IMG/VR virus record: IMGVR_UViG_2740892487_000005
Span: 1 to 44,830 of that record
DNA from: a virus
Taxonomy: Duplodnaviria > Heunggongvirae > Uroviricota > Caudoviricetes
Strand: one strand, 5' to 3'
Length of the DNA stretch: 44,830 nucleotides
Shown: positions 1 through 19,221 of the stretch, piece by piece
Layout of the letters: each line of letters begins with the position of its first letter
How positions within the stretch are numbered: position 1 is the first letter of the stretch
Position numbers and translations under genes: made by a program
The notes under the pieces: generated by a model
What the model saw: the letters and a program-made list of their open reading frames with translations, nothing else
Told to the model about the DNA's origin: nothing
The model's database searches: none

Positions 1-474
1 TTAGGTTTTTTTTCGTTGAGCGTCGCGAATAGCTTCACTGTGTGGACGTGCTGCATGAACCGGGCGGCTGTCTAAAATCACCCGATTAACGCCGCGCTGA
101 TGTAAACCGCGATTAAGCGTTTGTTCCTCTTCTCCTTTGGCGAAAAACTGTGGATGGCGGACTTCCACGCCATAATTAAATTCGCCAGGAAGAGAATCGA
201 GAAAATGCCAAAGCGCAGGCAGCTCCCGTGGGCCGAATGTGGCAGGCAGTTGCAGCCAGTATTGCCCAATGCGCGGAGCCAACGGTGACATGCGGGTCAA
301 AAATTCAGTCACTAAATCATCGCAATGCCGTAATGCTGCCTGATGCGAAATGGTCGCCGGAAACTTAAAACAGAAGCGGAAGTCATCTGTGGTCTGCTCA
401 CGCCAGCGCAGGACAACCTCGGGTTTCGGCAGGGCGTAAAGCGTGGTGTTGCCCTCCACGCAGTTAACATGACG
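1..474 (-). CDS. yecE: DUF72 family protein YecE, 3' portion of host gene; 5' end displaced by prophage insertion
   Basis: 152-aa ORF matches the YecE/DUF72 protein as recalled from memory. In-frame upstream residues diverge into phage-derived sequence near 460-480. The stop at 1-3 looks created by an extra T in the T8 run at 6-13, so the gene probably continues off the window. Confidence 0.7.
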   Translation of the reverse strand, partial: RHVNCVEGNTTLYALPKPEVVLRWREQTTDDFRFCFKFPATISHQAALRHCDDLVTEFLTRMSPLAPRIGQYWLQLPATFGPRELPALWHFLDSLPGEFNYGVEVRHPQFFAKGEEEQTLNRGLHQRGVNRVILDSRPVHAARPHSEAIRDAQRKKT

Positions 475-490
475 GGCGTTAGGGGTTAAC
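455..490. other. Approximate host/prophage junction (attL region) between yecE remnant and integrase 3' end
   Basis: Host-like yecE reading frame ends about here and the integrase stop is at 486. Exact core not determinable without attR. Confidence 0.35.
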
Positions 491-1800
491 TTACTGATTT
501 TAATAATCCTCCAGTACTGCTCTCGTGGCTATGGGGCATCAATGGGGCAAAATCTGCCAGCTTCTGATTCAGCATTGCGATCTGCTCTGCGCTGCTGTCA
601 GCCATCCATGCACCGTAAACATTGAACACCATCTGCGCGCTCGCATGCCCCATCTGACTGGCAATAAAACTCGGGTTTGCACCAGCAGATAATGACCAGC
701 ACGCATAGGTATGTCGTGACTGGTACGCCTTTCTGTGTCTGATCCCCGCGCGCTTTAGTGCCGCTTCCCATGAGTCGCCTACTGAATCGACCCGGTAGAT
801 AAATCCGACCTGCTTACTGCGTCTGACCACATGCGGGTTAAAGACGAATGTACACTCATGGGTCACCGAACGACCGTACTCACGTAACTGCACTTCAATG
901 TGATATTGCCTGCCCAGCCTTGTCATTTCAGCCTGATTTTTCAGGATGCTGATTGCGGGCTGGATAAGATGCACCACTCGATCTGTGCTTGCCTCGGTTT
1001 TCGGTAGAGTGAACTCACCAAGTTTCGTATAATTACGCCTGACGGTAATTGTTCCCGCCTTCAGGTCGATATCTTCCCAGGCCAGGGAGACCAGTTCCCC
1101 GTGACGCATTCCTGTGTACACTGCTAATGACCACAGGTTTTTCGTCTGCTGATGCCGGCATGCATCTATCAGGCGAATAAATTCATCACGAGACAGAGGA
1201 TCTGGTTCTGCCCTGGCTTTTTTCAGAGGTTTAATTCCCTCGAATGGGTTCACCTCTAAGTAACCGTGATCCGCAGCAAACTGAAACATTCCGGCCATTG
1301 TCGTCATGTAATAGTTCACAGTAACAACGCTTCGCCCTTTTGCCGGGGCTTTATTTTTCGTCGGACTCTGATAACCAGTTAGCAAATCTTTCCTGAGATA
1401 CAGCAATTCCTCTTTGGTTACTGCTGACACCAGGCGATTACCTCCGATCCTCGGCACCATATTCCTTGCGACAGATTCATAGCGATTGAATGCGTTCGCG
1501 CAGATTTCCATCCGTTTCAGATCCAGCCATTTTTCTTCAAGTTCTTTCACTGTAATGTCTTTTTTTACTTACACCAAAAGCCTTGAGGTTAGGGGAGTCA
1601 GGAAACTGGGTTGCATAATCAAAGGTTCCTGTGCGGATGGCAAAACATACTGATGTCCGCAGTTCCCCGGCTATCTTTCTGTTCTTAGCGGTGTCAGGGA
1701 CACCGAGACTTTCCCTGACACGCTTACCTTTAAAATTAAACCAGATGCGTAATGTGCCACCGTGGTTTTCGACGCCTGTTGGATATGTGACTTTATCCAT
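486..1800 (-). CDS. int: Tyrosine integrase (lambda Int family with N-terminal arm-binding domain); split in this sequence by a single-base indel
   Basis: ORFs 1537..1800 (N-terminal arm-binding-like 87 aa) and 486..1550 (354-aa core and catalytic domain) are adjacent in different frames. Removing one T from the T7 run at 1560-1566 joins them into about 438 aa. Confidence 0.9.
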
Positions 1801-1858
1801 TGGTGTTACCTCCAGACGCCCAAGAGCGATACGAGCTTACCTTTTTCATGGCATCAAA

Positions 1859-2095
1859 TCACCCTGGCTGCTTGCTTTTCATTGAAGCGACCCAGGCATC
1901 TACAGCCTTTCTGTTATACATGCACTCACTGGAAGGTTTAGGATTTCCGTCAGGCGATACGTGGATATACTCCCTCCCAATCATCCAGCATTCTTTTCTG
2001 GCCCGGAGGATGGTACCGGGCTTGAGCCCGGTCACCGCGATCAGAACACTTTCACAAACCCAATCGTTAGGAGCTAACTGAATAACATTGCTCAT
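1859..2095 (-). CDS. xis: Excisionase-like protein
   Basis: 78-aa ORF directly upstream of int with an Xis-like motif (…ILRARKECWMIGREY…). Confidence 0.65.
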   Translation of the reverse strand: MSNVIQLAPNDWVCESVLIAVTGLKPGTILRARKECWMIGREYIHVSPDGNPKPSSECMYNRKAVDAWVASMKSKQPG

Positions 2096-2104
2096 ATACC
2101 CGCC

Positions 2105-2464
2105 TCACACCAAGTCAAGGCCACGGCAGTGGCGCCACACATCAAACATCCGCTTTACCACTTCCCTACAGTAAAAACCGTCGCAATCTCGCGTAAGGTC
2201 GTAACGGCTCCCGTACCGTTGGCGCACCCATATTTCAAATGCTTTGTGCATTACTTCACCTCTGCAGATAACGTCGTCACAATGACATGCTGGCGCGCCA
2301 CCTTTTGGTGGGTGAATTTCCTTAACTTCAGGCTGGAATGGTGTTCCAGATTGCTTCCATTGCCTTCTCTTACGATAAAACGTGGTTCTGGAGATACCAC
2401 CAAGCATCTCCTGAACGCGCTCACGGTTAACGAGAACCGGCTGAATGCTGATTGTTGTTTGCAT
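2105..2464 (-). CDS. Putative DNA-binding protein (Xis/AlpA-like HTH, Cys-rich C-terminus)
   Basis: ORF 2105..2539; likely start at internal Met (MQTTISIQ…). Segment …ISRTTFYRKRRQW… resembles excisionase/AlpA HTH. Confidence 0.45.
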   Translation of the reverse strand: MQTTISIQPVLVNRERVQEMLGGISRTTFYRKRRQWKQSGTPFQPEVKEIHPPKGGAPACHCDDVICRGEVMHKAFEIWVRQRYGSRYDLTRDCDGFYCREVVKRMFDVWRHCRGLDLV

Positions 2465-2573
2465 GCTTTTCTCCAGGCAAAAAAGAATGCCCTCACACTG
2501 GAGGGCAAAATGGGTGATAACGTGGCAGTGCATTCGCACCCAATAGCCAGCTCATAACTGGCTATCAGTTGCG

Positions 2574-2901
2574 TCAGGATTTGATGTGAAGTCGCGGTTC
2601 GCCGTCTTTCGGCTCCGGCCACTGGCGAGCCATATTCACCTTCAGCTTTTCTTCCATCGCCGCGGTGATTTGCTCATCGGTGATACCGGCGCGCCGCTGC
2701 GCGTCCCAAAGCAGGAACTGCATATCAGCCCACTCGCTGAGGTCGCCAGGATCGGCGGCAGCTTCCAGCGCTTCTTTCGAAAGGTGTTTCAGCGGTCCGA
2801 TAGGGCCGACATTACCGAAGGTCTTTTTCTGACCATTCAGCGTGGCGCCGACGGATCAGGTTTCTGGTGAACTGTGATTTCTTCGATTCGTAAGGTTTCA
2901 C
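2574..2901 (-). CDS. DUF550/MazG-like dNTP pyrophosphohydrolase-like protein; frameshifted in this sequence
   Basis: Hand translation of minus strand: GTG start at 2901 after GGAGAGAG, then …AEWSEKDLR* in one frame and FGNVGPIGPLKHLSKEALEAAADPGDLSEWADMQFLLWDAQRRAGITDEQ… in the next. Removing one T from the T5 run at 2824-2828 joins them. The plus-strand ORF 2586..2870 is its antisense shadow. Confidence 0.5.
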
Positions 2902-2910
2902 GCTCTCTCC

Positions 2911-3150
2911 TCATGCCGCGCGCCGGGCACGCAGCGATTTAATGTGCTCGCTCGTCTCCAGTTCGGCGCGTATCTGTGCCGCTTCGTGATGGTCTAAAGG
3001 TTCGAAGTCTGAATTAAATCTGTCGATTGATGCTGTGTTGATCCGGCCCTGTCGCCAGTAGCGGACTATCTGTGATGTGCAACTGTGGATGATGACGGGC
3101 CAACCGTGCTGGTCAGCGTAAATCTGACCCCGTTGAATTAGCTGGAACAT
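2911..3150 (-). CDS. Hypothetical phage protein
   Basis: 79-aa ORF in the early-left operon, start overlapping the upstream gene. Confidence 0.45.
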   Translation of the reverse strand: MFQLIQRGQIYADQHGWPVIIHSCTSQIVRYWRQGRINTASIDRFNSDFEPLDHHEAAQIRAELETSEHIKSLRARRAA

Positions 3151-3799
3151 TGGGCACCACCTTAAATTCGATTACCCAGACCCAAGGGTTGGAGTCGAAG
3201 CTACCTTCGCCATTGGCCTTATCCCACCACGCTTTAAAGCCGTGCATTTCTGGACACAGCCCTACCGGAACGCCAGCGATCGCATAATGCTCGGCATGGT
3301 TGAAGGCTCGTCCAGCTACGGTTTCGCAGTGTTCGAGCATGTCGCCAAGGTCATTCAGCAAGTCTGATTCATTAGCCGTCTGAAGTTTCTCGACTCGGAT
3401 GCCGGTTATCTCCAGGGTGATTCGGCTGGCGGCGCGAGGCATTACTGCGCCAGATTGTGGACGTGTCCAGTCTCCCCATTCTGGCTCACCATCGGCCCAA
3501 TACCAGAAGTCCGGGACTTCTTGAGGAACTGCCGGATCAAAGAAGTTAAATGCGTCGAGCCGTGAAAATGACTCTCTGACATAAATCGCATCGCCAACTG
3601 CACCGAATGGACATGGATGCCAGTAATCGCACACGTGCTCCTCATCTTCGCTCCATGGCCACATGCTTCCGTCGTCGCGCTCTGCAATTTCAGTAGCCCG
3701 AGTATGACGCCATTTGATAGGGCGCCGAACCTGCGTCATGCTGCCATCAAGCAAGGCGCGCACCTGATACTCATTAAAAATCATTCCACGATCTTTCAC
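3113..3799 (-). CDS. Hypothetical phage protein (228 aa, acidic, Trp-rich)
   Basis: Long ORF in the early-left operon; no family recognised by eye. Confidence 0.6.
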   Translation of the reverse strand: MKDRGMIFNEYQVRALLDGSMTQVRRPIKWRHTRATEIAERDDGSMWPWSEDEEHVCDYWHPCPFGAVGDAIYVRESFSRLDAFNFFDPAVPQEVPDFWYWADGEPEWGDWTRPQSGAVMPRAASRITLEITGIRVEKLQTANESDLLNDLGDMLEHCETVAGRAFNHAEHYAIAGVPVGLCPEMHGFKAWWDKANGEGSFDSNPWVWVIEFKVVPNVPANSTGSDLR

Positions 3800-4020
3800 T
3801 GGATCCCCCTCTGCTTATTCCTCAATTCGATTTCTTCCTGGCAACTGGAGCACGTCTTGCAGCCGGGAACGGCAGCGCGGCGCGGCTCGGGAATTGGTTC
3901 GTCGCATTCTTCACAATGCTCAGCTGATACTGCGCTGTGGTCGATGCGGTGAGCGGAAAGGGCAGCGTTACGCTGAAGCTCTTCAATCTCTGCTGCGGTA
4001 TCGATGATGTCCATGGTCAA
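3796..4020 (-). CDS. TraR/DksA family C4-type zinc-finger protein
   Basis: 74 aa with C-terminal CEECDEPIPEPRR…CKTCSSC motif typical of phage TraR/DksA-like proteins. Confidence 0.75.
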   Translation of the reverse strand: MTMDIIDTAAEIEELQRNAALSAHRIDHSAVSAEHCEECDEPIPEPRRAAVPGCKTCSSCQEEIELRNKQRGIQ

Positions 4021-4106
4021 TGCTCCCGGAACTGTCGGTTAATTCGGTTGAAGGTGAACGCCAGCAATAAAAAAAGGCCGCTTTAGCGACCCGGTGATCA
4101 GTGCCT

Positions 4107-4298
4107 TCATGCTGCACCGCCTTCATTCTTCTCGGCTTCGACTGCCATCTGCTCAAGCCGTAGTGAAAGCTCGGCGGCCAGCGTCTGGAATTCTTCCTCG
4201 GTCGCCACAGGAATCGGCACAAAGCGAATCCCGATGTGGGCTAGGTGATTGGCAATTTCGAGGCTCTTCCTCAAATCAACGGGCGAGGCTTTGTTCAT
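4107..4298 (-). CDS. Hypothetical small phage protein
   Basis: 63-aa ORF in operon context. Confidence 0.45.
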   Translation of the reverse strand: MNKASPVDLRKSLEIANHLAHIGIRFVPIPVATEEEFQTLAAELSLRLEQMAVEAEKNEGGAA

Positions 4299-4669
4299 GC
4301 GGCTTTCTCCCCGGGTAATGGTTTCAGACCGTCATTCAGCGTGCGCTCAAGGTTGGACAATATTCCTCGCAACCTCTTTATCTCTTCATCCTCGGTCAGT
4401 CGGCGCATTGCTTCCCATAGCGTCCTTGTCAGAACATACATAGGGACATTCGGGTCGAGGCCAAGTGCTTTCGCCAGACCTTGCTGAGCGTCGGTTAACC
4501 TTTCCTCCGATTCCTCCCGGCGCTTACGTCGGCGTTGCATCTCCTCCTCACTTTCCTGGCGCAGGTTCTTCAGCCTTTCATCGTTATCCCTAACCTGCTG
4601 CTCAAGCCGCTCCTTCGACCGATGCGCTCGACAAACAAGATCGGCGATTTCGCTGCCATGTCGCTTCAT
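4295..4669 (-). CDS. Hypothetical coiled-coil protein (possibly the C-terminal part of one gene with 4602..5162)
   Basis: 124-aa ORF rich in charged heptads. It overlaps the upstream ORF by 68 nt; a T7 run at 4707-4713 could be an indel that splits a single gene. Confidence 0.45.
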   Translation of the reverse strand: MKRHGSEIADLVCRAHRSKERLEQQVRDNDERLKNLRQESEEEMQRRRKRREESEERLTDAQQGLAKALGLDPNVPMYVLTRTLWEAMRRLTEDEEIKRLRGILSNLERTLNDGLKPLPGEKAA

Positions 4670-5162
4670 AAGTTTTTGTTCGCTGAGGTAGGTGTTGATT
4701 ACGCGATTTTTTTATTTGGGTTCTCTCTGCCTGTCGCGTCATGCCATCCATAAGCAACTTCATCCAGGCGTCGCGAGGTAGGTTATCAATCTGGCGCATT
4801 GTCGGCCCCTTGAGGGTATGCCATCCAGTTTCCTTCCGGATCATCAAGCCACAACCATCTGGGATGTCGCTTTTCTTGAGCATGCCTTCAGGAACTGCAA
4901 AAACAACGCCACCTGCATAGCTGAAGTATTTGGTGTATTTGCCTGCTGTAACGTCAGCCCGGAAATCACCTACGCTGACTTTAACCTCATAGACGACTGG
5001 GCAGAACTTGCTGTAGCTGTGAGCAATAGAGTAGACATCAGGTCGGCACGTTCCGGCGGGCCCAAGCTGCATATCCTCCCAGCAGATGCGCGCTGTGTTC
5101 TGGCGCAAATGCTCTGCAAGGTCATGAGCAAGCTCGTTATGACCCCATTTTTTTGTTGTCAT
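4602..5162 (-). CDS. Hypothetical phage protein (186 aa)
   Basis: ORF MTTKKWGHNELAHDLAEHL…; family not recognised with confidence. Confidence 0.55.
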   Translation of the reverse strand: MTTKKWGHNELAHDLAEHLRQNTARICWEDMQLGPAGTCRPDVYSIAHSYSKFCPVVYEVKVSVGDFRADVTAGKYTKYFSYAGGVVFAVPEGMLKKSDIPDGCGLMIRKETGWHTLKGPTMRQIDNLPRDAWMKLLMDGMTRQAERTQIKKSRNQHLPQRTKTYEATWQRNRRSCLSSASVEGAA

Positions 5163-5380
5163 TGTTCTGCTCCGAAGCGGCGATTAAGCCGCCCTGTGTA
5201 TACGACGAACTCCAGGAGGCTAACTCCCAGAGCTTCAATTTTCTTATGATGCTTGTTGATGATGGGAGGCACCGTTTCGTTCCAGTTAGGCTTTGGCTTC
5301 TTGCGCATGGCCTGCTGGATTTTCTCGGTGCAGCGACGGCAGGCGGCGCGGATGGCGTTGTCTGTTTCAGATGTCATGAC
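5159..5380 (-). CDS. Hypothetical small protein
   Basis: ORF 5159..5536 with likely start at internal Met (MTSETDNAIRAACRRC…) preceded by a G-rich RBS. Confidence 0.45.
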   Translation of the reverse strand, partial: VMTSETDNAIRAACRRCTEKIQQAMRKKPKPNWNETVPPIINKHHKKIEALGVSLLEFVVYTGRLNRRFGAEQ

Positions 5381-5474
5381 TTGCCCCCATGATTTGCAAA
5401 TTCTCCATGGACTTGCTCGCGGAGGCCCGAGAATTGCCCGGCTCGCCCTGGCCGGCGATAGAAGGGTGTGCGTT

Positions 5475-6155
5475 TCATTTCCACTGCTCCCCGAACGTGA
5501 AGCCGATTTCCGCCAGCGCCTCGTCCATCTTCTCAATGAACTCCGGCACCATTTCGTTGAAATCGGTCATGTACTGCGGATCCCGCTCAACGACGACGTG
5601 GTGAATACCTTCGCGTTTCATGCGCGGGTCGTAGTTGGCAAAGAACCAGGCTTCTTTCCCGGTCACCCACATGCTGTACTGCACCTGGGCCATGTACTCT
5701 GACTTAATGGCTTCGAAACCGCCGAGGCGGAATTTCATGAAGTCGCGGGAGGTGAACGGACATTTCAATTCGAGGCCGAAATTGTTACTGCAAAGGCCGT
5801 CAGGGGAGCACGCGGTGCGCATGCTCTCGTCACGGAACAGGATCGGAGACTCCGTGACTTTCACGTCGGTGGTGAACTCGAAGAGGGTGCGGGCGTCTTC
5901 CTCGTACTGCTTTCCCCAGGCCAGAGCCTTGGCGTTAACCTCTGGCGCGACGCCGGTGCATACCTCGGCGAGTAGGGTGTGGAAGTAGGACATCTTCATG
6001 CCCGTCCATTTGGTGCCGGAGCGCGGCTTGGATATTACGTTGTGCACTTCAGAGGCGGTGATAACGCCGAGCCTTAATTTGGCCCATGCTTCATCACCTT
6101 GCTCTACGGTGGACACATCAATGCCGGTCCTGGCCAGGATAATTTCGGGTGTCAT
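5475..6155 (-). CDS. exo: Exonuclease (lambda Exo / YqaJ-like recombination exonuclease)
   Basis: 226-aa protein closely resembling lambda Exo (MTP.IIL.RTGIDV…GDEAW…[15 protein letters not shown]… [24 protein letters not shown]…). Confidence 0.9.
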
Positions 6156-7013
6156 GCTGCCGCCTTAGCTTTTTTCTGAAGGAAGTTGAACCCTTTCTGT
6201 GCCTCTTCTTCAGTGAGGTCTGACGCCTCAAGAATTGGCCGTTTGAAGATGTCGCTGCACACTGGGAGGAAGTCTTGCTCCCAGTCTTTATTCAGCGATG
6301 TTAAGAGATCGGTGATCGCCTGAAGTGTTTCTTCGCTTGCTGCTGGTGGAAGCGCTTCTGTGGTGCTGCGCGGGGTGACGTCACGAATATCAACGTCCAG
6401 CGATTTGCCTTCCATTTCTTCTGCAGTAGGCTGCTGTCCAATCTCAGGCCATGCCTTGCGCAACGCCTGGGCTTCTGCGCATTTCGCCAGCTGTCCATAC
6501 GGGCGTTTTTTTCCACATCGCGTTCGGCGCCGTGGTGTCACGTCCGCCGGTGGCGTAGTTTTCAATCCAGTATTCTTTAGCGCTGAACTCGACGATCTCG
6601 CCGCTGGGCATGCGCTTGAAAACGGTGTATTTGCACCACTGAGGGAAGGTCACCTCGACACCAGTAAGCGTCTGAGTTACGTCGGGCCCGAACTCGGGCT
6701 CGCGAGCCCCGGCATAATCGCCGGAGCGGTCTGCCTGAATGCGGTAAAGTCCGATGCCCGGCATGACGACGTCGCGCCATTCGCCTTTACCTGTTTTCGA
6801 GTCTTTGACGTACATCGGAACGAGGTGGACAGGTTTGAGCAACGGATCCAGCTGGCGGGCGCGGCAGTAGTCAAGCGCCATCATTACCGATTCGTCTTTG
6901 GCGCCAGGATAGATGCTGTTCTTCAGCGCGCTCCAGGTGGAGACGTCGACGCCTATCTCCTGAAGCGACGTCGCTGTGATTGTTAATTCGTTTGCCATCG
7001 TTAATCCCCTCAA
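6152..7013 (-). CDS. bet: Recombination protein Bet (RecT family single-strand annealing protein); split by an indel in this sequence
   Basis: ORFs 6444..7013 (N-terminal) and 6152..6565 (C-terminal …[38 protein letters not shown], Bet-like) overlap in different frames. Removing one T from the T7 run at 6506-6512 joins them. Confidence 0.85.
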
Positions 7014-7016
7014 AAA

Positions 7017-7301
7017 TTAAAATGGGCAGCCGGTACGGTGTTCCCAGTCGTATTCCGCCTGGGCGTAAGCAACTGCCGAAATGAAATCGTTGTAGGCCTC
7101 GCCAGCTTTATCGCTGCGAAGTCCTTCGTATGGACTGGCGTCAATCGGTACGGAGAAGTGGAAGAGGCCGGACGGCTCTTTTGGCATCATGTCGATGATT
7201 TGTTGCGCCCGGTCGTCGATCCACTTCTCTTTCTCGTCGGTGATCTGCTGCTCAGCCCAGCGCCGATCTTCGATGCGGTCGTAAGTGAGGTATGCGTTCA
7301 T
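7017..7301 (-). CDS. gam: Host-nuclease inhibitor Gam-like protein
   Basis: 94 aa beginning MNAYLTYDRIEDRRWAEQQ…, similar to the lambda Gam core; positioned after bet. Confidence 0.65.
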   Translation of the reverse strand: MNAYLTYDRIEDRRWAEQQITDEKEKWIDDRAQQIIDMMPKEPSGLFHFSVPIDASPYEGLRSDKAGEAYNDFISAVAYAQAEYDWEHRTGCPF

Positions 7302-7808
7302 AAATTCTCCGGTTTTCTTTCTTCATGAACGGCATGCTTGCCGTGCATTCGCTCTCTTGCTGCAACGACAACAGCCCTGGCCTCATTAAGGTCGGTGAAA
7401 TTGCCAAGGTGGTATTTTTTGCCGTCGATAGAGCAGCGCGCGTGCCAGCGTTTATCTTTCTTATTCCAATAAACGCCTTTGACGCCGCTTGTGTTGTTTT
7501 TTGGAGAGAGCTTATTTAGCTGATTAATGCAGTGAGGAACGTCCCTGAGGTTGCATAACCTGTTGTCAGTTCTGATGCCGTTTATGTGGTCTATTTCATG
7601 CTCAGGCCACGAACCATACGAATAAAGCCATGCCAGGCGATGGCATAAATATCTTTCGTGGTCGATAGATACTCGAAGATAACCCATAGGGTTTAACGAC
7701 CCAGCGATAGAGCCGGTAACCATGCCGCCGGCAGTTTTTTAGCCTGGTGAAAATCCCAGTCTCTGCGTCGTAGTGAAATAACTCCTTTAACCTCTGAATT
7801 GAAAGCAT
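7298..7808 (-). CDS. HNH endonuclease (AP2-domain type); split by an indel in this sequence
   Basis: N-terminal ORF 7602..7808 (MLSIQRLKELFHYDAETGIFTRLKN…) and C-terminal ORF 7298..7723 (…GYLRVSIDHERYLCHRLAW…KGVYWNKK…) join if one T is removed from the T6 run at 7735-7740. Confidence 0.75.
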
Positions 7809-7854
7809 GGCAATGCCTCCCGGTTAGTCCAGGCCGATCGGTTGAATAGGGTGG

Positions 7855-8052
7855 TTACTGCTGCGCGATGGATTTCGCCGGGAACTCGCCGTTGCGGATG
7901 ATGCTTTCTACCGGCCAGCACTCAGCTGACACTTTCTGCTCTGTAGCTGCCAGGCTGCATTCCTGCTGGCTGTCGTAAACGCCGAGAATGACATCCTGAT
8001 AATCACCGTTGGTCATTGCCACGGTCAGGACGAGTGCGAATAAAGTTTCCAT
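7855..8052 (-). CDS. Hypothetical small protein with hydrophobic N-terminus
   Basis: Internal Met of ORF 7855..8106 (METLFALVLTVAMT…) preceded by GGGAGGA. Confidence 0.4.
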   Translation of the reverse strand: METLFALVLTVAMTNGDYQDVILGVYDSQQECSLAATEQKVSAECWPVESIIRNGEFPAKSIAQQ

Positions 8053-8180
8053 CAGTGAAGAGTCCTCCCGATGGCGACGGCGTAAAGGCGTTTTGCTTCT
8101 TCCCACGCCGGAGCATTGCGATGGAGCACCGCGAACGACGCGAGCCGTTGGGCCTCTCTGATCTGCTGCTGGTTTACCAT
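8052..8180 (-). CDS. Hypothetical small protein (42 aa)
   Basis: Hand translation MVNQQQIREAQRLASFAVLHRNAPAWEEAKRLYAVAIGRTLH; strong RBS AAGAGGAA; stop overlaps the next start. Confidence 0.3.
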   Translation of the reverse strand: MVNQQQIREAQRLASFAVLHRNAPAWEEAKRLYAVAIGRTLH

Positions 8181-8336
8181 GATTTCCTCTTGGCCTTATC
8201 GCGGCGAACGGAACGGTTAATACAAGACTTCAACGCATTTATTCAGTGTTTCAATGGGCGGTGGATGGCCGCCGGTTGTCATAACTTGAGCCACTCGTAA
8301 ATGACTCCAGGTATGAAAAAGCCGCTGGTTAGGCGG

Positions 8337-8633
8337 CTATTGAGGTTCGCGCGGCTTGTGGTCGAATCGGTGCCACCCGTCAGTTAATTCAAATGGAGCA
8401 TAACTTTCCCGGCGCTCAGCGAACCCAAGCTCAACAGACAGAGCGTGCAGCTCATGCCGACGCTTAATCTGTTCCATCGCAATCCAGTCAGCATCGGCAT
8501 TGCGCTTTTGAGCTTGCTTCGGCGACAGGTCTAAACTGTTTATTTCACTTAGTTTCTGCTGACGCTTGATGTCCTGTTTCATATTGCGAAGCGCATTTAT
8601 CATTGAGTCGATGCGCTTGATGTCGTCGATCAT
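8337..8633 (-). CDS. Hypothetical phage protein (98 aa)
   Basis: ORF in the early-left operon; not Arg-rich, so not called as an N antiterminator. Confidence 0.5.
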   Translation of the reverse strand: MIDDIKRIDSMINALRNMKQDIKRQQKLSEINSLDLSPKQAQKRNADADWIAMEQIKRRHELHALSVELGFAERRESYAPFELTDGWHRFDHKPREPQ

Positions 8634-9049
8634 CCCCTTACCCTCTGTCGTTACCCGCTGATGCGGGAGAAATGCTTTGGCTATGTGGTAGGTGGGAGAC
8701 CCATTTCGACCCGATTCGGCCTACTTATCTTCGGCAATAGCTCCTCGGGCCTCGCCGCTTTACGTGCGACATATTCCCGTCCATGAACCCTTCACCACAT
8801 CCCATAACATTCCCTGTATTGGTCAGCGCCAACTCCCTGCCAGTGTTGCCCGTTCTCACGCCGTTCTCGCTCTCGCGCGGGGATACTCTCTCACCGACCG
8901 GATCGCACCCGGTGATACAGCACGTTTACGTGTAGGGGTCTTAACAGGTCATTGACGCTGTAAATCTGCATGTTGTTAAAAAGCAGGCGACTTGCTGTCC
9001 GCCGCTGGCTAACTTCGCTCAGCTGTCGATGTTTCGTTTCGATGGGGTA

Positions 9050-9127
9050 AATTTAGCGTGATGCTAAATTATGCGCAATAGCAAAATGCTAAATTGTTGA
9101 ATGGTTTTATTTAGCGTATTGATTAAT
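9050..9127. promoter_or_regulatory. Putative OL/PL operator-promoter region
   Basis: Three sites built on inverted half sites TTTAGC-N5-GCTAAA (e.g. 9052-9068 TTTAGCgtgatGCTAAA) downstream of the cI terminator. Confidence 0.5.
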
Positions 9128-9162
9128 AAGCGATTAAAAATTTACAGCGAAGGAATTCGGGA

Positions 9163-9190
9163 CGTAAAAAAGCCCGCGCGATGGCGGGCT
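9163..9190 (-). terminator. Intrinsic terminator downstream of cI
   Basis: Stem GCCCGC/GCGGGC with 6-nt loop followed by a U-run on the minus-strand transcript. Confidence 0.6.
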
Positions 9191-9209
9191 TGAGGGGTTT
9201 TGCGTGAGG

Positions 9210-9887
9210 TTATGGGATGTTTAGTATTTTGGCATCAACCACAACGCCGATGATTTTGCAGTTTCCATTAATTTCTAGCATTGGATATGCGGGGTTAAGG
9301 GGCTTTAGGAAGCGTCTGCCGGCATCGATTACAAGCTTCTTAAAGGTCGCTTCGTTATCGCCTTCTAGCTTCGCGACAACCAGCTTTCCGTTGCGCGGCT
9401 CGACTTCAGGATCAACAAGTATCGCTGCTCCCTCGGGTATGCTCAGTCCAGCCGGGGAGGTCATAGAATCCCCTTTAACGTCCAGCCAGAATGAATCTTC
9501 TGAGCAGTCAACAGTCGTGTCATACCAGCGATCTATCGCTCTTCGGTGATAAGGTTCTACAGCTTCCATCCATTGCCCCGCGCTTACCCAGCTGATTACA
9601 GGATAACTTCCTTTTGTCTCGTTCAGTCCTCGAAATGCAACGTTCGAAGGTTCTTCACTGGCGTGTAAAACATCCATCCAGCCAAAAGGCAGATCAAGCG
9701 CAGTTTCAATTTTGCGAGCCATCTTATCGCCGATATTGCGATGAGGGTTTGGTCCCAGTAGCTGGCTAAGCGCAGCCGGACTTGTCTCGATGAGCTCGGC
9801 AAACTGCGCTTTGGTCATTCCAGACTCGTGCTGACGCTTCTCGTACAGCGCTTCCAGGTTGGCTTTTCTGATTTCTTTATTTTCCAT
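9210..9887 (-). CDS. cI: CI-type repressor (N-terminal HTH, C-terminal S24 LexA-like peptidase domain)
   Basis: ORF 9210..10004; probable start at ATG 9887 (MENKEIRKANLEALYEKRQ…). Contains HTH and a GDSM…K self-cleavage-type domain. Divergent from cro across the operator region. Confidence 0.9.
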   Translation of the reverse strand: MENKEIRKANLEALYEKRQHESGMTKAQFAELIETSPAALSQLLGPNPHRNIGDKMARKIETALDLPFGWMDVLHASEEPSNVAFRGLNETKGSYPVISWVSAGQWMEAVEPYHRRAIDRWYDTTVDCSEDSFWLDVKGDSMTSPAGLSIPEGAAILVDPEVEPRNGKLVVAKLEGDNEATFKKLVIDAGRRFLKPLNPAYPMLEINGNCKIIGVVVDAKILNIP

Positions 9888-9904
9888 ACCTGCATTGTTA
9901 CTGC

Positions 9905-9971
9905 TTTTAGCAAAATGATAAATGTGCAAATTGCTAAATGATGCTTGCGTAGTATTTAGCATAACGCTAAA
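9905..9971. promoter_or_regulatory. Putative OR operators with PRM/PR between cI and cro
   Basis: Three sites related to TTTAGC-N5-GCTAAA, including a perfect palindrome TTTAGCataacGCTAAA at 9954-9970, in the 116-bp divergent intergenic region. Confidence 0.55.
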
Positions 9972-10003
9972 CTCCAAATCAAACGACTCACCCGGAGACA
10001 CCA

Positions 10004-10237
10004 ATGAGCACTGAACTACACCGCTGGCGCAAGGCCGCCACTACCGACGAATGGGCGCAGCTCGCAAAGTTGGCTAACACGACGCCAGGTTACCTGGACC
10101 AGATCGCCTACGGAAATCGCCGGGCATCTCCAGAAATGGCATCTGCTATCGAGAAAGGCACGAAGAATTTTCACCGCCAGGCTCCGGTCCTAAAAGAAAG
10201 CCTGGTATTCGCATCGCCGCGTGATACTGCGGCCTAA
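10004..10237 (+). CDS. cro: Cro-like transcriptional regulator (YdaS-type HTH)
   Basis: 77-aa ORF divergent from cI, first gene of the rightward operon. Confidence 0.7.
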   Translation: MSTELHRWRKAATTDEWAQLAKLANTTPGYLDQIAYGNRRASPEMASAIEKGTKNFHRQAPVLKESLVFASPRDTAA

Positions 10238-10254
10238 CCACGAAAGGGAAAGCA

Positions 10255-10800
10255 ATGCATTCACTTGCGTATCAACAAGGTAACAAATTTTCGCCAGCGG
10301 CGATGATTTACCAGAATCGCCGGGAGCGAGAATCCTCGGCGTTAAATATCGATGGGATCCGCGCAGCAGTACGCGCCTGGGCAGCTGATTGCCGCAGTCG
10401 TGAATTTGTCGCCGCGCTGATCGTGGAAGAGTGGCGGGCGTCCGGCGGAACCGGTCTGGATATCCCGACTGACTCGCACCGCCAGATGCAGAAAGTGTTT
10501 CGATGGATTGATGGCGATACCGAATACGCCGCCAACAACATTCGCCAGCTGGCCCCGGCAATCATGTCGGTCCTGCCGCTGGAGTACCGAAACCGTCTGG
10601 CGCCGCAGAACGACACGATGTCGCTGATCGCCTCTGCGATGAAAGAGTGTGCCGAGGCTAAACAGGCCGTGCTGCTGGACGCTCCAGAGCATCAGAAGCT
10701 CAAAGAGGTAAGCGAGGGTATAGCGTCGCTGTTCCGCCTCATGCCGGAGCAGGTAGGACCGCTGATGACGATGGTTACATCGATGCTGGGGGTTATATGA
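10255..10800 (+). CDS. CII-like / YdaT-family regulatory protein
   Basis: 181-aa ORF immediately after cro, in the position of cII/YdaT of Rac-like prophages; family assignment from memory. Confidence 0.45.
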   Translation: MHSLAYQQGNKFSPAAMIYQNRRERESSALNIDGIRAAVRAWAADCRSREFVAALIVEEWRASGGTGLDIPTDSHRQMQKVFRWIDGDTEYAANNIRQLAPAIMSVLPLEYRNRLAPQNDTMSLIASAMKECAEAKQAVLLDAPEHQKLKEVSEGIASLFRLMPEQVGPLMTMVTSMLGVI

Positions 10801-10885
10801 GAGGCACAAGAAAAGAAAAAGCCCTTGAAGCGGTAACTTCAAAGGCCCTTATCACACTGTGTTACGGCAAGTAACGGGAGTAAGT

Positions 10886-11794
10886 ATGTCAAACACCGCT
10901 GAAATAATCAATTTCCCAAATAAAACCGAACAACCGGGAGGTCGTATGGCCGACCTGTCGAACGGGTATACCAAGGTCGCTAACGAGATCCAACAGCTTA
11001 AGCCTCGCCTGAGACTGTCAGGCCGGGAATGGCAATGTTTTGAGGCGGTGATCTGGCTTACCTACGGCTGGAACAAGAAACAGGACCGCGTGACAAATAC
11101 GGTTATTGCCGAGCTTACGGGCCTGAGCGATACGCATGTATCGGACGCGCTTAAGTCTCTCGCAGAACGCAAAATCATCTTTTCACAGAAGCAGGGCATG
11201 ATGAAAATCGTCGGTGTAAACACTGACCTTTCAGCATGGATTTTAGACAAACCGGAAACGGGAAGAAAATTCCCGAAAACGGGAAAATCATTCCCGAAAT
11301 CAGGAATAACCTTCCCGAAAACGGTAGACACCCAATACAAGAACAAGAACAGTATTAAAAGATCTTCGTCCGAGAATTCTGACGAATCCTCTGACGCACG
11401 TCTGAAGAAATTTTTATCAACTCATCCTGAAGCTGCGGTCTACACACCATCCGGTGCGAAGTGGGGCTCTGCTGAAGACCTCGAGACAGCTAAGTGGATT
11501 TCCTCCAGGGTGAAGCTGATTAACCCAACCTGCAAAGCCCCGGACATGACCTCCTGGTCTAACACTGTTCGCCTGATGCGCCAGATAGACAACCGGTCGC
11601 ACCAGGACATCTGCGCGCTGTATGACTGGGCTAGCAAACACCACTTCTGGCAGACCAACATCCTGAGTCCCGAAAGCCTGCGTAAGCAGTGGGACAAGCT
11701 GACAATGCAGTGTAACGCCGGAGGTGAGCAGCGCGCTGTCAAGCCAGATCTGGACTTCAACAACACTGACTGGGCCTATGGGGTGATCCGATGA
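10886..11794 (+). CDS. O: Replication initiator protein O (iteron-binding)
   Basis: ORF 10859..11794 with start at ATG 10886 after GGGAG. Iterons are embedded in the coding sequence (repeated FPKTGK peptide); followed by P. Confidence 0.85.
   Translation: MSNTAEIINFPNKTEQPGGRMADLSNGYTKVANEIQQLKPRLRLSGREWQCFEAVIWLTYGWNKKQDRVTNTVIAELTGLSDTHVSDALKSLAERKIIFSQKQGMMKIVGVNTDLSAWILDKPETGRKFPKTGKSFPKSGITFPKTVDTQYKNKNSIKRSSSENSDESSDARLKKFLSTHPEAAVYTPSGAKWGSAEDLETAKWISSRVKLINPTCKAPDMTSWSNTVRLMRQIDNRSHQDICALYDWASKHHFWQTNILSPESLRKQWDKLTMQCNAGGEQRAVKPDLDFNNTDWAYGVIR
11252..11323 (+). repeat. Origin iterons (about 4 copies of TCCCGAAAACGG-like repeat) inside O
   Basis: Direct repeats ccggaaacgggaag / ttcccgaaaacgggaa / ttcccgaaatcagg / cttcccgaaaacgg, followed by an AT-rich stretch. 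Confidence 0.7.
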
Positions 11795-12480
11795 AATCTC
11801 TTGCAGAGCAGATGCGTAACCACGACCGCGAGCAGATGAGCCGCATGGCCCATAACCTGCCAGAGCAGTACCAGGAGTGCGCGCCGGTCGAGCAGGTGGC
11901 GCAGGTATTCAACAAGCTGTTCAACGAGCTGCGCGCCGCGTTCCCGGCCAGCATGGCGAACTTCCGCACCCAGGAAGACCTGAACGAATTCCGCCGTCAG
12001 TGGCTGCTGGCGTTTCAGGAGAACGGGATCCACACCATGGCTCAGGTCGATGCCGGCATGCGCATTGCCCGCCGCCAGGAGCGCCCATTCCTGCCGTCGC
12101 CGGGCCAGTTCGTCGCCTGGTGCAAGCAGAGCGGCGGCGCGCTGGGCGTCAACGTTGACCAGGTGATCGCCGAGTACTGGGAATGGCGTAATCGTTCGTT
12201 CGAATTCATCTCCAGCGAGCAATTTCCATGGTCGCAGCCGGTCATGTACCACATTTGCGTAGAATTGCGCCACCGCAGCACCGAGCGCCAGTTAACGCAT
12301 GGTGAACTGGCACGCGAGGCAGGCGATCTGCTGGACATGTGGGAAAGGCGCGTCACCGAGGGTAAGCCAGTGCCGCCGGTACGCCGGGCTATTGCCGCAC
12401 CAGCTGCCGAGCAAGGGCCGACGCCGATCCAGCTGCTGCTGGCCAAGTACAACCGCAACAAGTCGAACGGGATGGTGTGA
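11791..12480 (+). CDS. P: Replication protein P (DnaB helicase loader)
   Basis: 229 aa with strong resemblance to lambda P (…REQM.R.A.NMPEQY…FPAS.AN…RRQW.LAF.ENGI.TM.QV.AGMR.ARRQ.RPFLPSPGQFVAWC…). Confidence 0.9.
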   Translation: MKSLAEQMRNHDREQMSRMAHNLPEQYQECAPVEQVAQVFNKLFNELRAAFPASMANFRTQEDLNEFRRQWLLAFQENGIHTMAQVDAGMRIARRQERPFLPSPGQFVAWCKQSGGALGVNVDQVIAEYWEWRNRSFEFISSEQFPWSQPVMYHICVELRHRSTERQLTHGELAREAGDLLDMWERRVTEGKPVPPVRRAIAAPAAEQGPTPIQLLLAKYNRNKSNGMV

Positions 12481-12481
12481 C

Positions 12482-12826
12482 ATGAACATAACAATTCGTG
12501 GGCAGATTCTTGCAGCCCTGCGTAATAACCCGGGCCTGAATAGTGCTCGCATTGCCACCATGATCGGCATGACCACCAAAAAGATTTCCGGCCCGTTAAG
12601 TACGTTGTTTGCAGACGGCCTGATCGAGTTCGAAGGCAAGCACGGACAGCGGCTTTATCGGCTGACCGATTACGGCATGAAATACGCACCAGAAACAATC
12701 CCGGCTATGCCGAAGGGAAATTCGAAGCTGGTGCAGCGTACAGAGGCAAACGTGATCTGCCAGGAGTGCCGCAACAGCGCGGCGATGAGAAGGGTATTGA
12801 TGGTTTGGGGGAGGGTAGGGGTATGA
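12482..12826 (+). CDS. Hypothetical winged-helix-like protein
   Basis: Start at ATG 12482 overlapping the P stop (in-frame part of ORF 12299..12826). Confidence 0.5.
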   Translation: MNITIRGQILAALRNNPGLNSARIATMIGMTTKKISGPLSTLFADGLIEFEGKHGQRLYRLTDYGMKYAPETIPAMPKGNSKLVQRTEANVICQECRNSAAMRRVLMVWGRVGV

Positions 12827-13212
12827 GCAACATCGACAAACGTGGATTACGGGAAGCAGCGGAGAAGGCGACGAAAGGCCGGTGGGCTGTTGAGTTCGAC
12901 GATGAGATTTACTCCACTGACGGCGTGAACCATGAGCAAATAGCCATGGTATTCAGTGAAAACGAAGCGCGTGATGCTGCATTTATCGCCGCAGCCAACC
13001 CCGCCACCGTGCTGGCGCTGCTGGCATCGCTGGAAGCCGCAGAGAAGCGAATCGCTGAACTGGAAGCGAAGCTCGATAGCGCAGATAAATTGCAAGATAG
13101 CGCATTTCGTCATGGTCTTCAGCATGGCTTCAGTTTTGGTCAAACGGATAATCAGGCTGGATTTGAAGAGTGCTTATCTGCATATGGAGCGCGGGGTAAA
13201 GATAATGGCTAA
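12823..13212 (+). CDS. Ead/Ea22-like family protein
   Basis: Start at ATG 12823 after GGGTAGGGG; N-terminus MSNIDKRGLREAAEKATKGRW… is typical of ead/Ea22-like proteins (from memory). Confidence 0.5.
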   Translation: MSNIDKRGLREAAEKATKGRWAVEFDDEIYSTDGVNHEQIAMVFSENEARDAAFIAAANPATVLALLASLEAAEKRIAELEAKLDSADKLQDSAFRHGLQHGFSFGQTDNQAGFEECLSAYGARGKDNG

Positions 13213-13405
13213 TTCATTACTTGAAACATGCAATGACTGGCAAATTCTTCGCGCAGAAATATTGGCTCGAAATCCAAATATGGCCATGACACTTCAAAAG
13301 CTCGACATCATGATTGAGCATTCCGTTAGGGCGGCAATTGAAATATCGCATCGTGTTGACTGGGATTTTAGTGAAGCAGAGCGTAAAGCTAAGGCGGTGA
13401 ATTAA
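13205..13405 (+). CDS. Hypothetical small protein
   Basis: 66 aa from ATG 13205 (MANSLLETCNDW…). Confidence 0.4.
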   Translation: MANSLLETCNDWQILRAEILARNPNMAMTLQKLDIMIEHSVRAAIEISHRVDWDFSEAERKAKAVN

Positions 13406-14152
13406 TGGAACTTTCACGGGATAAGATTAAAGAAATAATCAATGACGATTGGCTTTTGATGGATGATTGCGAAGGAAATAAAAACTGTGACGTTGTCAAA
13501 GAGATGGCGCGTATAGCGTTGGCATCGCTCGAAGCGGAGCCGGTGGCGTGGTTGCTGTCAGGAGGCGGGGCAAAAAAACAACGTCAGCTTCGATAGTGGC
13601 AATGCTTATGCTGACCCATTGCGTGAGGTGACACCACTCTACGCAGCACCACAGTTACCGCAGCCAGCGGTGTTATCAGTGCCAGATGAAATACCGAAAC
13701 TGAAAGATGGGATGGGCTTTAAGTATGTGAAAGATGGCGTCCGATATTCCTTAAATTATGCCAACGGATGGAATCAATGCCGCGCCGCCATGCTTCAGGC
13801 CGAACCTGTAAGTAATAGTGATGAGTTACCGCTGGACTATCTGCAAGGACACAAAGACGGCCTGGAGTGGGCTGCACAATTGGCAGAAGCCAATCATCCG
13901 CAAACAGGTGACTGGTTGTACGACGACCAAATCGATCTTGCCAGGGCGATTCGCAAAGGTCCGGATATGCCTACTGTTCAGGGTGGCAACTCTCCGGTGA
14001 TTCCAGATGGTTGGGTGATGGTGCCGGTTGAGCTTACTCCGGATATGCGTGCAGCATGGGATTCGGCTCCGTACACAGACGATGATGACAACGACATGCA
14101 GGCTGCATACCGCGCGATGATTGCAGCAGCACCGCAGTGGAAGGTGAAGTGA
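13405..14152 (+). CDS. Hypothetical phage protein; probably one gene split by an indel
   Basis: ORF 13405..13596 ends just after the A7 run at 13572-13578. The downstream ORF (13619..14152) has only a TTG start and no RBS, and its frame is open back through the run; removing one A fuses them. Confidence 0.45.
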
Positions 14153-16204: not shown

Positions 16205-16341
16205 AACCAGAACTGATCGAATCGCTTCGCATGCGCTGGCTGCGTCTCCGCATTTATCGCCGCCCGGGTACGGTGCTGGTGGGCTACCGCATTCTTCGAA
16301 ACTTTATCCGCATCTACCAGATTGCAGGAGCAGCAGCATGA
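16201..16341 (+). CDS. Hypothetical small protein (46 aa)
   Basis: ORF coupled at both ends by ATGA overlaps with rusA and Q. Confidence 0.35.
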
Positions 16342-17042
16342 TCACTCAAGACCTGGAATTTGTACGCCAGCAGCTCATAGTTGCGACTGCGGATCTGAGC
16401 GGGGCGACTAAAGGGCAGTTGATGGCCTGGCTGGAGAACGCTCAGTTCGATACAAAGACATTTAAGCGGAAGAAGCCCAAAGTTTGGGACGAAGAAAGCG
16501 AGAAATGGGTACCGGTTGATAACCCGCCGATCCCCGGCAAACAGTCACACGCGAAGGGCTCGCACATTCCTCTGGTTCAGCCGGTCGAATACTCCACAGC
16601 ATCGTGGCGCCGGGCGGTCCTGTCGCTCGAGGAGCACCAGAAAGCTTGGCTGCTCTGGAACTACAGCGAAAACACGCGCTGGGAGAACCAGCTGGCGATC
16701 ACCCAATGGGCTTGGGCAGAGTTCAGGGCGCAGCTTGGAACCAGGAAGATTGCCGGCAAGACCATGGACAGGCTGAAGGCGTTAATCTGGTTGGCTGCGC
16801 AGGACGTGAAGAAAGGTCTCCGTGGTGGGGATAAATTTACTGGTGTTGAACTGGCTGATCTGACAGGGGTGGAAGAGAAAAACTGGTACAAGACGTTTGG
16901 CGGCCATTGGCAAACAATGCAGGAGGTACTCGAGGCTCTTGATAGAGATGCTTTGCGCGCGGTTTCGCGATCACGTTCACAACAAAAGGCGGCTCATTTC
17001 CAGCAAGGTATTGCAAAAGTAGAGAAAATAGCGCATATTTAA
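16338..17042 (+). CDS. Q: Late-gene antitermination protein Q
   Basis: 234-aa ORF at the end of the nin region, directly upstream of the late regulatory region and lysis genes; family call from memory. Confidence 0.7.
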   Translation: MITQDLEFVRQQLIVATADLSGATKGQLMAWLENAQFDTKTFKRKKPKVWDEESEKWVPVDNPPIPGKQSHAKGSHIPLVQPVEYSTASWRRAVLSLEEHQKAWLLWNYSENTRWENQLAITQWAWAEFRAQLGTRKIAGKTMDRLKALIWLAAQDVKKGLRGGDKFTGVELADLTGVEEKNWYKTFGGHWQTMQEVLEALDRDALRAVSRSRSQQKAAHFQQGIAKVEKIAHI

Positions 17043-17570: not shown

Positions 17571-17969
17571 ATGTCTGAACCTCTAACCATTGCTGGCGGT
17601 GTCACGTCCGCAACTATCGGAGTGACGTTCGCATCTTTGTTCCCCGAGGCAACGCCCGGCGTAATGCTGTGCGCGCTGGCTGGTGCAGCAATGTACGTTC
17701 TGACATCCGATCCACACCAACTGTGGAAGCAGTTCCTGTTCGCCGTCATCAGCTTTGTCGGCGGGGTTTTCTTCTCGGTACCGATGGCGAAGATACTGGC
17801 TGGGGTGATAAATACCGCCCTTGGCCTGTTACAGCCTCCGGTAAGCATCGAAGTATCCCCGAATATCGGCGCGCTGGTTTCCGCTTCCATCTCTGTCGCA
17901 GTCCTGCTTCGCATCCTCGCCAAATCAAAGCGGGGGAAAATGCCGGGACTGGAGGAGGAAGGTAAATGA
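17571..17969 (+). CDS. Putative holin
   Basis: Internal start of ORF 17463..17969; about 133 aa with several hydrophobic helices and a charged C-terminus; first gene of the lysis cassette. Confidence 0.55.
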   Translation: MSEPLTIAGGVTSATIGVTFASLFPEATPGVMLCALAGAAMYVLTSDPHQLWKQFLFAVISFVGGVFFSVPMAKILAGVINTALGLLQPPVSIEVSPNIGALVSASISVAVLLRILAKSKRGKMPGLEEEGK

Positions 17970-18247
17970 CATGGCAAACCATCGTCCTTGATGTAAACGC
18001 CATTATCTGCGCGCTGATCGCCGTAAGGCTGATGTTCTTCAGTAAGAGTGGAAGGCGACACCGTCCGGCTGTTGCCTGGATGGCGTACCTGATGATTCTG
18101 GCCGCTGGATTCACGGCGTTTCGCATCCTCTACGGCAAATATCTGCAGGTTGATCCGGGAGAGTTGATGCTCAACGTCGCCATATGCGTTGCTGTGTGGC
18201 GCTCCCGAGGCAATCTCGCCAAAGTTTTTCAGAAGGCCGGGCAATGA
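17966..18247 (+). CDS. Putative holin-like / lysis membrane protein
   Basis: 93 aa with two hydrophobic segments; ATGA overlaps on both sides. Confidence 0.5.
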   Translation: MTWQTIVLDVNAIICALIAVRLMFFSKSGRRHRPAVAWMAYLMILAAGFTAFRILYGKYLQVDPGELMLNVAICVAVWRSRGNLAKVFQKAGQ

Positions 18248-18786
18248 CTAAAGACGACATTTTCAACAGCATCCTCGGTAAAGAGGGCGGCTACGTGAAT
18301 CATCCGGATGATAAAGGCGGCCCGACGAACTGGAGCATCACCCAAGCAACGGCGCGCGCCCACGGTTATTCCGGAGATATGCGCAACCTGACCCGCGAGC
18401 AGGCCCTCGACATCCTCGAGGCTGATTACTGGTATGGCCCACGCTTCGACCAGGTTGCAACTGCCTCCCCGATCATCGCCGCCGAGCTCTGCGACACCGG
18501 CGTGAACATGGGGCCATCGGTACAAGTGAAATGGTTCCAGCGCTGGCTGAACGTATTCAACAATCAGCAGCAATTCTATCCCGACCTGATCGCCGACGGC
18601 CAAATTGGCCCGCGCAGCATCAGCGCCTTGAAGTCCTTCCTGGAGAAACGCGGACCCGAAGGCGAGACCGTATTGCTCAGAGCACTGAACTGCAGCCAGG
18701 GTCAGCGATATCTCGAGCTGGCAGAGCAGCGCCCGGCTAACGAATCATTCGCCTATGGCTGGATCCGGGAGCGCGTGAGCCTATGA
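18244..18786 (+). CDS. Endolysin (glycoside hydrolase family 108 lysozyme with peptidoglycan-binding domain)
   Basis: Start at ATG 18244; N-terminal …GKEGGYVNHPDDKGGPTNWSIT… motif typical of GH108. Confidence 0.85.
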   Translation: MTKDDIFNSILGKEGGYVNHPDDKGGPTNWSITQATARAHGYSGDMRNLTREQALDILEADYWYGPRFDQVATASPIIAAELCDTGVNMGPSVQVKWFQRWLNVFNNQQQFYPDLIADGQIGPRSISALKSFLEKRGPEGETVLLRALNCSQGQRYLELAEQRPANESFAYGWIRERVSL

Positions 18787-19055
18787 CTAAACTGAAAGCC
18801 ATCCTGGCAGGAATCGGGCTCGCCATCGCGCTGGTACTGGCCGCATTTGGTATTGGCGGTATTCGTGGGCGAGAAAAGGCCGAAGCAGAGTCAGAAAAGA
18901 AACGTACCGACGAGAACGCCGCAGCCACCAAAGCAGCTGCAGAACGACGCGTTGAAGTAACCAAGGAGGCCAGCAATGTTCAGCAGACAGTTAGCCATAT
19001 GCCTGATGACGATGTTGATCGTGAGCTGCGCGCAAACTGGACCCGCAAAGGTTGA
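18783..19055 (+). CDS. Spanin, inner-membrane subunit (Rz-like)
   Basis: N-terminal TM helix followed by charged coiled coil, directly after the endolysin. Confidence 0.6.
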   Translation: MTKLKAILAGIGLAIALVLAAFGIGGIRGREKAEAESEKKRTDENAAATKAAAERRVEVTKEASNVQQTVSHMPDDDVDRELRANWTRKG

Positions 19056-19221
19056 GGTAATCGACACCGGCTGCGACTGGGTCAACGTCATTCGCCTCAC
19101 TGAGCACGACATCGAAGTGATGGATCGCCAGACGAAGAAAGATGTGCTGGCACATAACAAATCGGTGCAGGCGAACTGCCAACCGAGTGAATACCGGGCC
19201 TTACAAACGCGGCCTGAGTGA
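18976..19221 (+). CDS. Spanin, outer-membrane lipoprotein subunit (Rz1-like)
   Basis: Lipoprotein signal with lipobox (MFSRQLAICLMTMLIVSC) in an ORF overlapping the 3' end of the Rz-like gene. Confidence 0.65.
   Translation: MFSRQLAICLMTMLIVSCAQTGPAKVEVIDTGCDWVNVIRLTEHDIEVMDRQTKKDVLAHNKSVQANCQPSEYRALQTRPE

Follow-up and report, generated by a model that had tools for sequence, protein, structure and literature searches.

The int-proximal junction of a lambdoid, non-Stx prophage in Escherichia coli yecE and its phiP27-type integration module

Positions 1–2100 of the DNA analyzed here, a stretch of 44,830 nucleotides from IMG/VR record IMGVR_UViG_2740892487_000005 (the window), almost certainly represent the int-proximal attachment site (attL) of a lambdoid, non-Stx prophage which entered the Escherichia coli gene yecE by site-specific recombination. 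The window is one mosaic lambdoid, non-Stx prophage, of which the int/xis/attP module is of the phiP27 type and the remaining part is a different mosaic. A phiP27-type integration module at yecE is an arrangement already known, thus the case is ordinary and holds no new biology. The anatomy of attL can be read directly from the left end of the window, where the junction fixes the exact left prophage boundary at 457–467 and the following features were assigned:

1..456, minus strand: internal fragment of host yecE (DUF72), yecE nt 97–551, identical to K-12 except for one inserted base; K-12 alignment and Pfam
6..13, minus strand: T8 run, causing the frameshift which leads to the TAA at 1–3; alignment to K-12, KL53 and Nissle
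457..467, minus strand: attL core TTAACTGCGTG, the crossover region; alignment of att sites and features of phiP27 (AJ298298)
468..485, minus strand: phage arm from the core to the int stop codon, with a match to yecE of 8 of 12 nt at 468–479
486..1800, minus strand: tyrosine integrase gene (int), ORFs 486–1550 and 1537–1800; tblastn, Pfam and identity to phiP27
1859..2095, minus strand: excisionase gene (xis), Pfam PF06806 (DUF1233) with E = 2.9e-32; also named excisionase in the annotations of all relatives

The host part was identified by alignment to yecE of K-12 MG1655 (b1868, 819 bp). Window positions 1–467 (minus strand) correspond to yecE nt 86–551 of 819, with zero substitutions over 14–467. 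The sole difference in this stretch is the T8 run at 6–13 (A8 on the coding strand), which comprises seven bases in K-12, KL53 and Nissle. In the translation of positions 4–507, the YecE/DUF72 family PF01904 was detected with E = 7.6e-37 and 127.9 bits (cutoff 25.3), covering profile positions 10–147 of 217. A reading of the sequence made without database searches (the sequence-only reading) had described the ORF as a YecE homologue which is host-like up to about 460–480, and had placed the prophage in the 5′ part of yecE. This description proved accurate, as the ORF is a true yecE fragment by its PF01904 match and by its identity to K-12 DNA, host identity ends at 467 and the insertion is located at nt 86–96 of 819. 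The open frame on the minus strand (window 1–600) ends with ...RDAQRKKT* at window positions 1–3; this TAA is premature because the extra homopolymer base shifts the yecE frame. The genuine yecE stop codon is located 268 nt past the left window edge, and the 3′ 268 nt of the gene are outside the window.

At the other end of the fragment, phage DNA stands in place of the first 85 nt (28 codons) of yecE, so that its native N-terminus is missing. An intact yecE start contiguous with the fragment, which would contradict an insertion, was not present: neither yecD nor the yecE start with the first 85 nt of the gene was found in the window, whether by a search with 27-mers allowing up to 3 mismatches (0 hits) or by blastn (no hit).

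The point where host identity stops is the 11-bp core, corresponding to yecE nt 86–96 (codons F29–V32). On the plus strand of the window it reads CACGCAGTTAA, the reverse complement of TTAACTGCGTG. TTAACTGCGTG is the only stretch common to attB (K-12), attL (the window, Nissle and phiP27) and attR (Nissle and the lysogens L014 and L017), while attR of a further lysogen, L016, contains the core with a single mismatch; these three lysogens had been found via the last ORF of the window. Within the window, the core occurs in one copy only. The same element is known from annotated phages, since the feature table of phiP27 (AJ298298) lists an 11-bp attL and an 11-bp attR which both read CACGCAGTTAA, and the 21-bp insertion duplication annotated for the Stx1a phage Stx1_14040 covers the same yecE position. 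Past position 467 and the partial match at 468–479 there is no further similarity to yecE. The phage arm holds a GCCCGyCA motif and leaves the yecE frame open into phage DNA.

The int gene is encoded on the yecE strand and adjoins the junction, its stop codon (486–488) being 18 bp away from the core, in agreement with the earlier suggestion that the fragment runs into the integrase 3′ end; its ATG is located at 1800. As written in the window, the integrase frame is interrupted, with int split into two ORFs by one additional base (T7 at 1560–1566 vs. T6 in KL53 and Nissle), which is probably a sequencing error. By tblastn, the two pieces showed 100% protein identity, in two frames, to the intact 437-aa Int of KL53. 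The Pfam scan was run on this intact protein and revealed an arm-binding domain (PF12167, Arm-DNA-bind_2; 86.2 bits, cutoff 22) and a catalytic domain (PF00589, Phage_integrase; 65 bits, cutoff 27.1). The Arg-I (YTGMRHGEL), Arg-II (SRHT) and His-III (GHAS) motifs align to XerA. In comparisons with solved structures, Int showed no significant match to lambda Int chains and matched only XerA and other tyrosine recombinases. The int/xis DNA is 84.8% identical to phiP27 over 99% of window 440–2100; with homologous int and xis genes adjoining the core, the integration module is of the phiP27 type.

The junction is found repeatedly. Among 5,426 complete E. coli genomes, 420 hold at least 80% of window 1–2200 including the junction, and the identical junction is also present in IMG/VR proviruses. 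In relatives with the same junction, the yecE side continues into yecN, cmoA and cmoB. This recurrence bears on two other explanations of the left end. An assembly chimera or mis-join could be considered in view of the poor-looking sequence quality with its homopolymer errors, but the identical junction in 420 complete genomes and in IMG/VR proviruses makes it extremely improbable. Also, the yecE-like stretch could be an attB copy inside another prophage (prophage-in-prophage), as described for ompW, where prophages carry the 21-bp attB plus about 79 bp of yecE-like sequence and serve as integration sites for yecE phages (PMC8112680). These ompW copies, however, measure about 100 bp, with 87% identity to yecE (PMC8112680), whereas here 467 nt are identical to K-12, and the relatives continue into yecN, cmoA and cmoB. 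Such an origin was ruled out by length and identity, leaving it a negligible probability.

The use of yecE as a phage integration site, named as known in the sequence-only reading, was found documented in the att features of phiP27 (AJ298298) and in two publications. A review lists yecE among the Stx-phage integration sites and cites Recktenwald and Schmidt 2002 for phiP27 (PMC8065619), and in O145:H28 strains Stx1a, Stx2a, Stx2d and also non-Stx phages were described at yecE (PMC8112680). The window adds a non-toxigenic prophage occupying a site which Stx phages also use, which matters for typing; in principle, occupancy of yecE also bears on the entry of Stx phages at this gene.

By analogy with the lambda Int paradigm, integration probably proceeded as follows. 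The lambda-type tyrosine integrase would recombine the phage attP with the 11-bp core at yecE codons 29–32, whereby Int bound to arm sites and core would exchange strands inside the 11-bp identity of attP and yecE. The first 85 nt of yecE would thus remain beside yecD at the far attR end, and the 3′ part of yecE would become fused, on the same strand, 18 bp downstream of the int stop codon. Xis would steer the reverse reaction, i.e. excision together with Int.

The module agrees with that of lambda in three respects: a heterobivalent tyrosine integrase with arm-binding and catalytic domains, a small excisionase gene directly upstream of int in the same orientation, and a short core identical in attP and attB. 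In contrast to lambda, which uses an intergenic gal-bio site, the target of the window prophage is located within a protein-coding gene, and the core sequence differs. With phiP27 (Stx2e; AJ298298/NC_003356; integrated in yecE), the window prophage shares the 11-bp att core CACGCAGTTAA on the window plus strand and the layout of core, about 18 bp, int stop codon, int and xis. Unlike the window prophage, phiP27 carries stx2e, and its int is not frameshifted as the window int is as written. Outside int/xis the two genomes are unrelated, and the matches with the best coverage of window 1–25000 do not include phiP27. Closer relatives of the module are found in Nissle 1917 and about 420 other complete E. 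coli genomes, such as KL53, in which the attL junction, int and xis are 97.9–99.7% identical to the window. Their early and late regions, however, are mosaic: only 40% of window 2200–20000 is covered by KL53, and the late genes of Nissle are lambda-like (gpG/T, tail tip fibre) and unlike those of the window. The Stx1a/Stx2a phages of O145:H28 STEC (Stx1_14040, LC567819; PMC8112680) have the same yecE position, the same int/xis orientation and a 21-bp duplication overlapping the core, but their integrase shows about 70% DNA identity, they carry stx and the phage arm adjacent to the core differs.

For the opposite prophage end, the displaced 5′ part of yecE, yecD and a second core were sought in the window with 0 hits. 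The window terminates at the TGA of a 110-aa UmuD-like ORF. In prophages encoding exactly this 110-aa protein, the ORF is followed by a hemerythrin-domain ORF, dinI, attR, a 34-aa yecE 5′ remnant and yecD, so that the right junction in these relatives is located about 1.2 kb past the position of the window end. Nissle 1917 has the same left junction and a far-end attR with a 96-bp 5′ yecE remnant adjoining yecD. The direct repeat which was expected at the other prophage end was thereby seen by proxy in relatives (Nissle, L014, L016 and L017) and not within the window. The complete integration event of this prophage is accordingly reconstructed from relatives other than the source genome and would have the same two ends.

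KL53 has the closest int match and was considered as reference for the far end, but its other prophage end abuts yciI/tonB in an apparent rearrangement, and Nissle was used. In KL53 (NZ_CP030919.1, 1753487–1756000), the far end of the yecE prophage, adjoining yciI/tonB and not yecD, is one breakpoint of this rearrangement. On metagenome scaffold L017 (11513–13005), the order of genes is a truncated yecD, a resolvase gene and yciI. These observations point to repeated rearrangements between two regions, that of yecE and that of yciI-ompW.

Each end of the window falls on the stop codon of a called ORF, namely the premature TAA of yecE at 1–3 and the TGA at 44828–44830. The limits of the window seem to follow the gene calls of a predicted provirus, with 456 nt of host DNA included on the left and about 1.2 kb of prophage plus attR missed on the right.

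With the insertion, yecE loses residues 1–28 and its start codon, and thereby the ATGA overlap which couples its translation to yecD. In alignments to the PDB, the lost residues correspond to the N-terminal segment of DUF72 proteins in the only structures solved for this family; YecE residues 1–9 (MIYIGLPQW) align to the first aligned residues (13–21) of EF0366 (PDB 1VPY). Because the lost residues align to this segment, yecE is most likely inactivated in lysogens, a loss which would follow from recombination of the lambda type within the gene.

A different outcome is implied by the annotation of lysogens by NCBI PGAP, in which a 257-aa hybrid YecE (DUF72) is given an ATT start located in phage DNA and shares 22 bp with the 3′ end of int (window 486–528; positions 3485–3506 in the relative L001). 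In this case lysogens would still produce a working, N-terminally swapped YecE of 257 aa, co-transcribed with int and under phage control. Through the phage arm, the open yecE frame does continue for about 20 further codons, with a GGAGG motif and ATT/ATC start candidates located just upstream. From int to the yecE remnant, no canonical start codon and no promoter-like or terminator-like site was found, the lack of a terminator being what would permit co-transcription with int, and a promoter and terminator scan of window 1–2300 gave nothing beyond the shuffled expectation. The conservation of a peptide-like stretch, IKIS.L, is explained by the coding sequence of the int C-terminus, with which it overlaps in a different frame. 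We regard a functional hybrid protein as very unlikely, and the ATT start is probably spurious, produced by homology-based extension during annotation. Rebuilding of the yecE N-terminus by the phage arm was also considered; with similarity past the core restricted to the 8 of 12 nt noted above, it was kept as a reading of low probability. Overall, we take yecE to be inactivated.

The additional bases in yecE and int belong to a larger set of frame breaks in the window:

6–13, 1560–1566, 2479–2484, 2824 and 4069–4075: homopolymer breaks, mostly +1 A/T vs. relatives
4707–4713, 5148–5154, 6506–6512, 19852–19859 and 38658–38664: homopolymer breaks, mostly +1 A/T

Against two near-identical relatives (at least 99.7% identity), 6 indels and about 10 substitutions were counted. 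Five of the 6 indels are +1 changes in A/T runs of at least 6 (at 6, 1560, 4069, 4707 and 6506), and the sixth is located at an alignment edge. Two further +1 changes, in an alignment of 96.8% identity, affect shorter A/T runs (5–6 bases vs. 4–5 in the relative; 2479 and 2824). Deletion of one base from the run re-joins long ORFs at 1560, 4707, 5148, 6506, 19852 and 38658. The break at 19852 splits a trypsin-like peptidase, the halves of which match Pfam profile positions 1–69 and 82–144. Other changes were a –1 in a GGG run of TipJ near 41516, a portal gene which goes out of frame and then back between about 23690 and 23840, and a frame change in the capsid gene near 28450. Altogether, yecE, int, early genes, the peptidase gene, the portal gene, the capsid gene and TipJ are split by frame breaks.

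If these frameshifts were real, the element would be a decaying cryptic prophage in which int, portal, tail-tip and other genes are pseudogenes, and the insertion and the A8 frameshift would each inactivate yecE; the lineage might then be deficient in mismatch repair. A real int frameshift would also mean that the element could not excise by itself. Homopolymers are natural hot spots of frameshift mutation, and at least 9 genes are broken. Also, the 8-A yecE allele was found in one of 5,424 complete E. coli genomes (strain A29), so the allele can exist or at least be reported in a complete genome. Several observations speak against decay: in DNA which is at least 99.7% identical to relatives, the ratio of indels to substitutions reaches about 0.6; every change in an A/T run is a +1; IS elements and deletions are lacking; and protein identity is 100% on either side of the int shift. 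Moreover, yecE, a host gene outside the prophage, bears the same type of change, and the pattern is typical of homopolymer miscalling. Miscalling does not fit every break equally well, as not all of them are +1 in A/T (TipJ with –1 in GGG; the portal gene out of frame and back). Because there are many frame breaks in near-identical DNA, the host gene included, homopolymer miscalling was favoured over decay; real frameshifts appear rather unlikely, and the bases added to the homopolymers of yecE and int probably stem from errors of sequencing or assembly. Given these systematic breaks, gene calls across the window are unreliable, and the yecE 'stop', the split integrase and the split structural genes should not be taken as pseudogenes without read-level confirmation.

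The remaining prophage is lambdoid in content. Pfam identified antiterminator Q, holins, a GH108 endolysin and a cI-like repressor with S24 and HTH domains, while Bet, exonuclease, Gam, O/P-type replication and Nin genes were taken from the annotations of near-identical relatives. The regulatory and lysis genes are:

9210–10004: S24 cI-like repressor; Pfam
16338..17042, plus strand: antiterminator Q; Pfam Phage_antiter_Q, E = 2.5e-92
17571..19221, plus strand: lysis cassette; Pfam (holins, endolysin)
about 17571–17969 and 17966–18247, plus strand: two holins; Pfam
18244–18786, plus strand: GH108 endolysin; Pfam
18783–19055 and 18976–19221, plus strand: Rz/Rz1-like ORFs, assigned by position only, the Rz-like ORF having no Pfam match

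From the end of Q (17042) to the first holin (near 17571) there are about 530 bp, leaving no room for stxAB. No stxA or stxB and no ORF of at least 55 aa with an assigned function was found in this gap, and no tRNA genes were found in the window. The earlier statement that stx genes are lacking between Q and the lysis cassette thus holds for a gap of about 530 bp without stxAB and without tRNA.

Among the components of the late module (window 21000–44200) are a DUF1073 portal, DUF2213, a tape measure protein and TipJ. Few E. coli genomes have this module (45 matched, with a best coverage of 60% at 89.5% identity), and it is closest to phages of Klebsiella and Enterobacter. A similar late module was found in E. 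coli FDAARGOS_1250, in a prophage with one end abutting yciB in the ompW-trp region; its presence at a different site is a clear case of int-module swapping.

Upstream of the right window end, a perfect LexA-box-like palindrome, CTGTATATAAAAACAG, was found at 44226–44241, 18 bp upstream of a two-gene cassette (44259–44830) encoding a 79-aa protein (phrog_3893, function not assigned) and the 110-aa UmuD-like protein (phrog_3469). The same cassette, together with the hemerythrin-domain ORF and dinI, closes several prophages with differing tail genes, some of them integrated at yecE and some elsewhere.

Two moron-like genes are located between the lysis cassette and the terminase. The first one (19546–20287, plus strand) encodes the trypsin-like peptidase (Pfam Trypsin_2) split at an A8 run, for which the protease domains of two defence proteins, Avs1b and RT-Protease, gave weak matches (E about 1e-5). 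The second one (20367–20801, minus strand) is a 144-aa ORF with no Pfam or PADLOC match.
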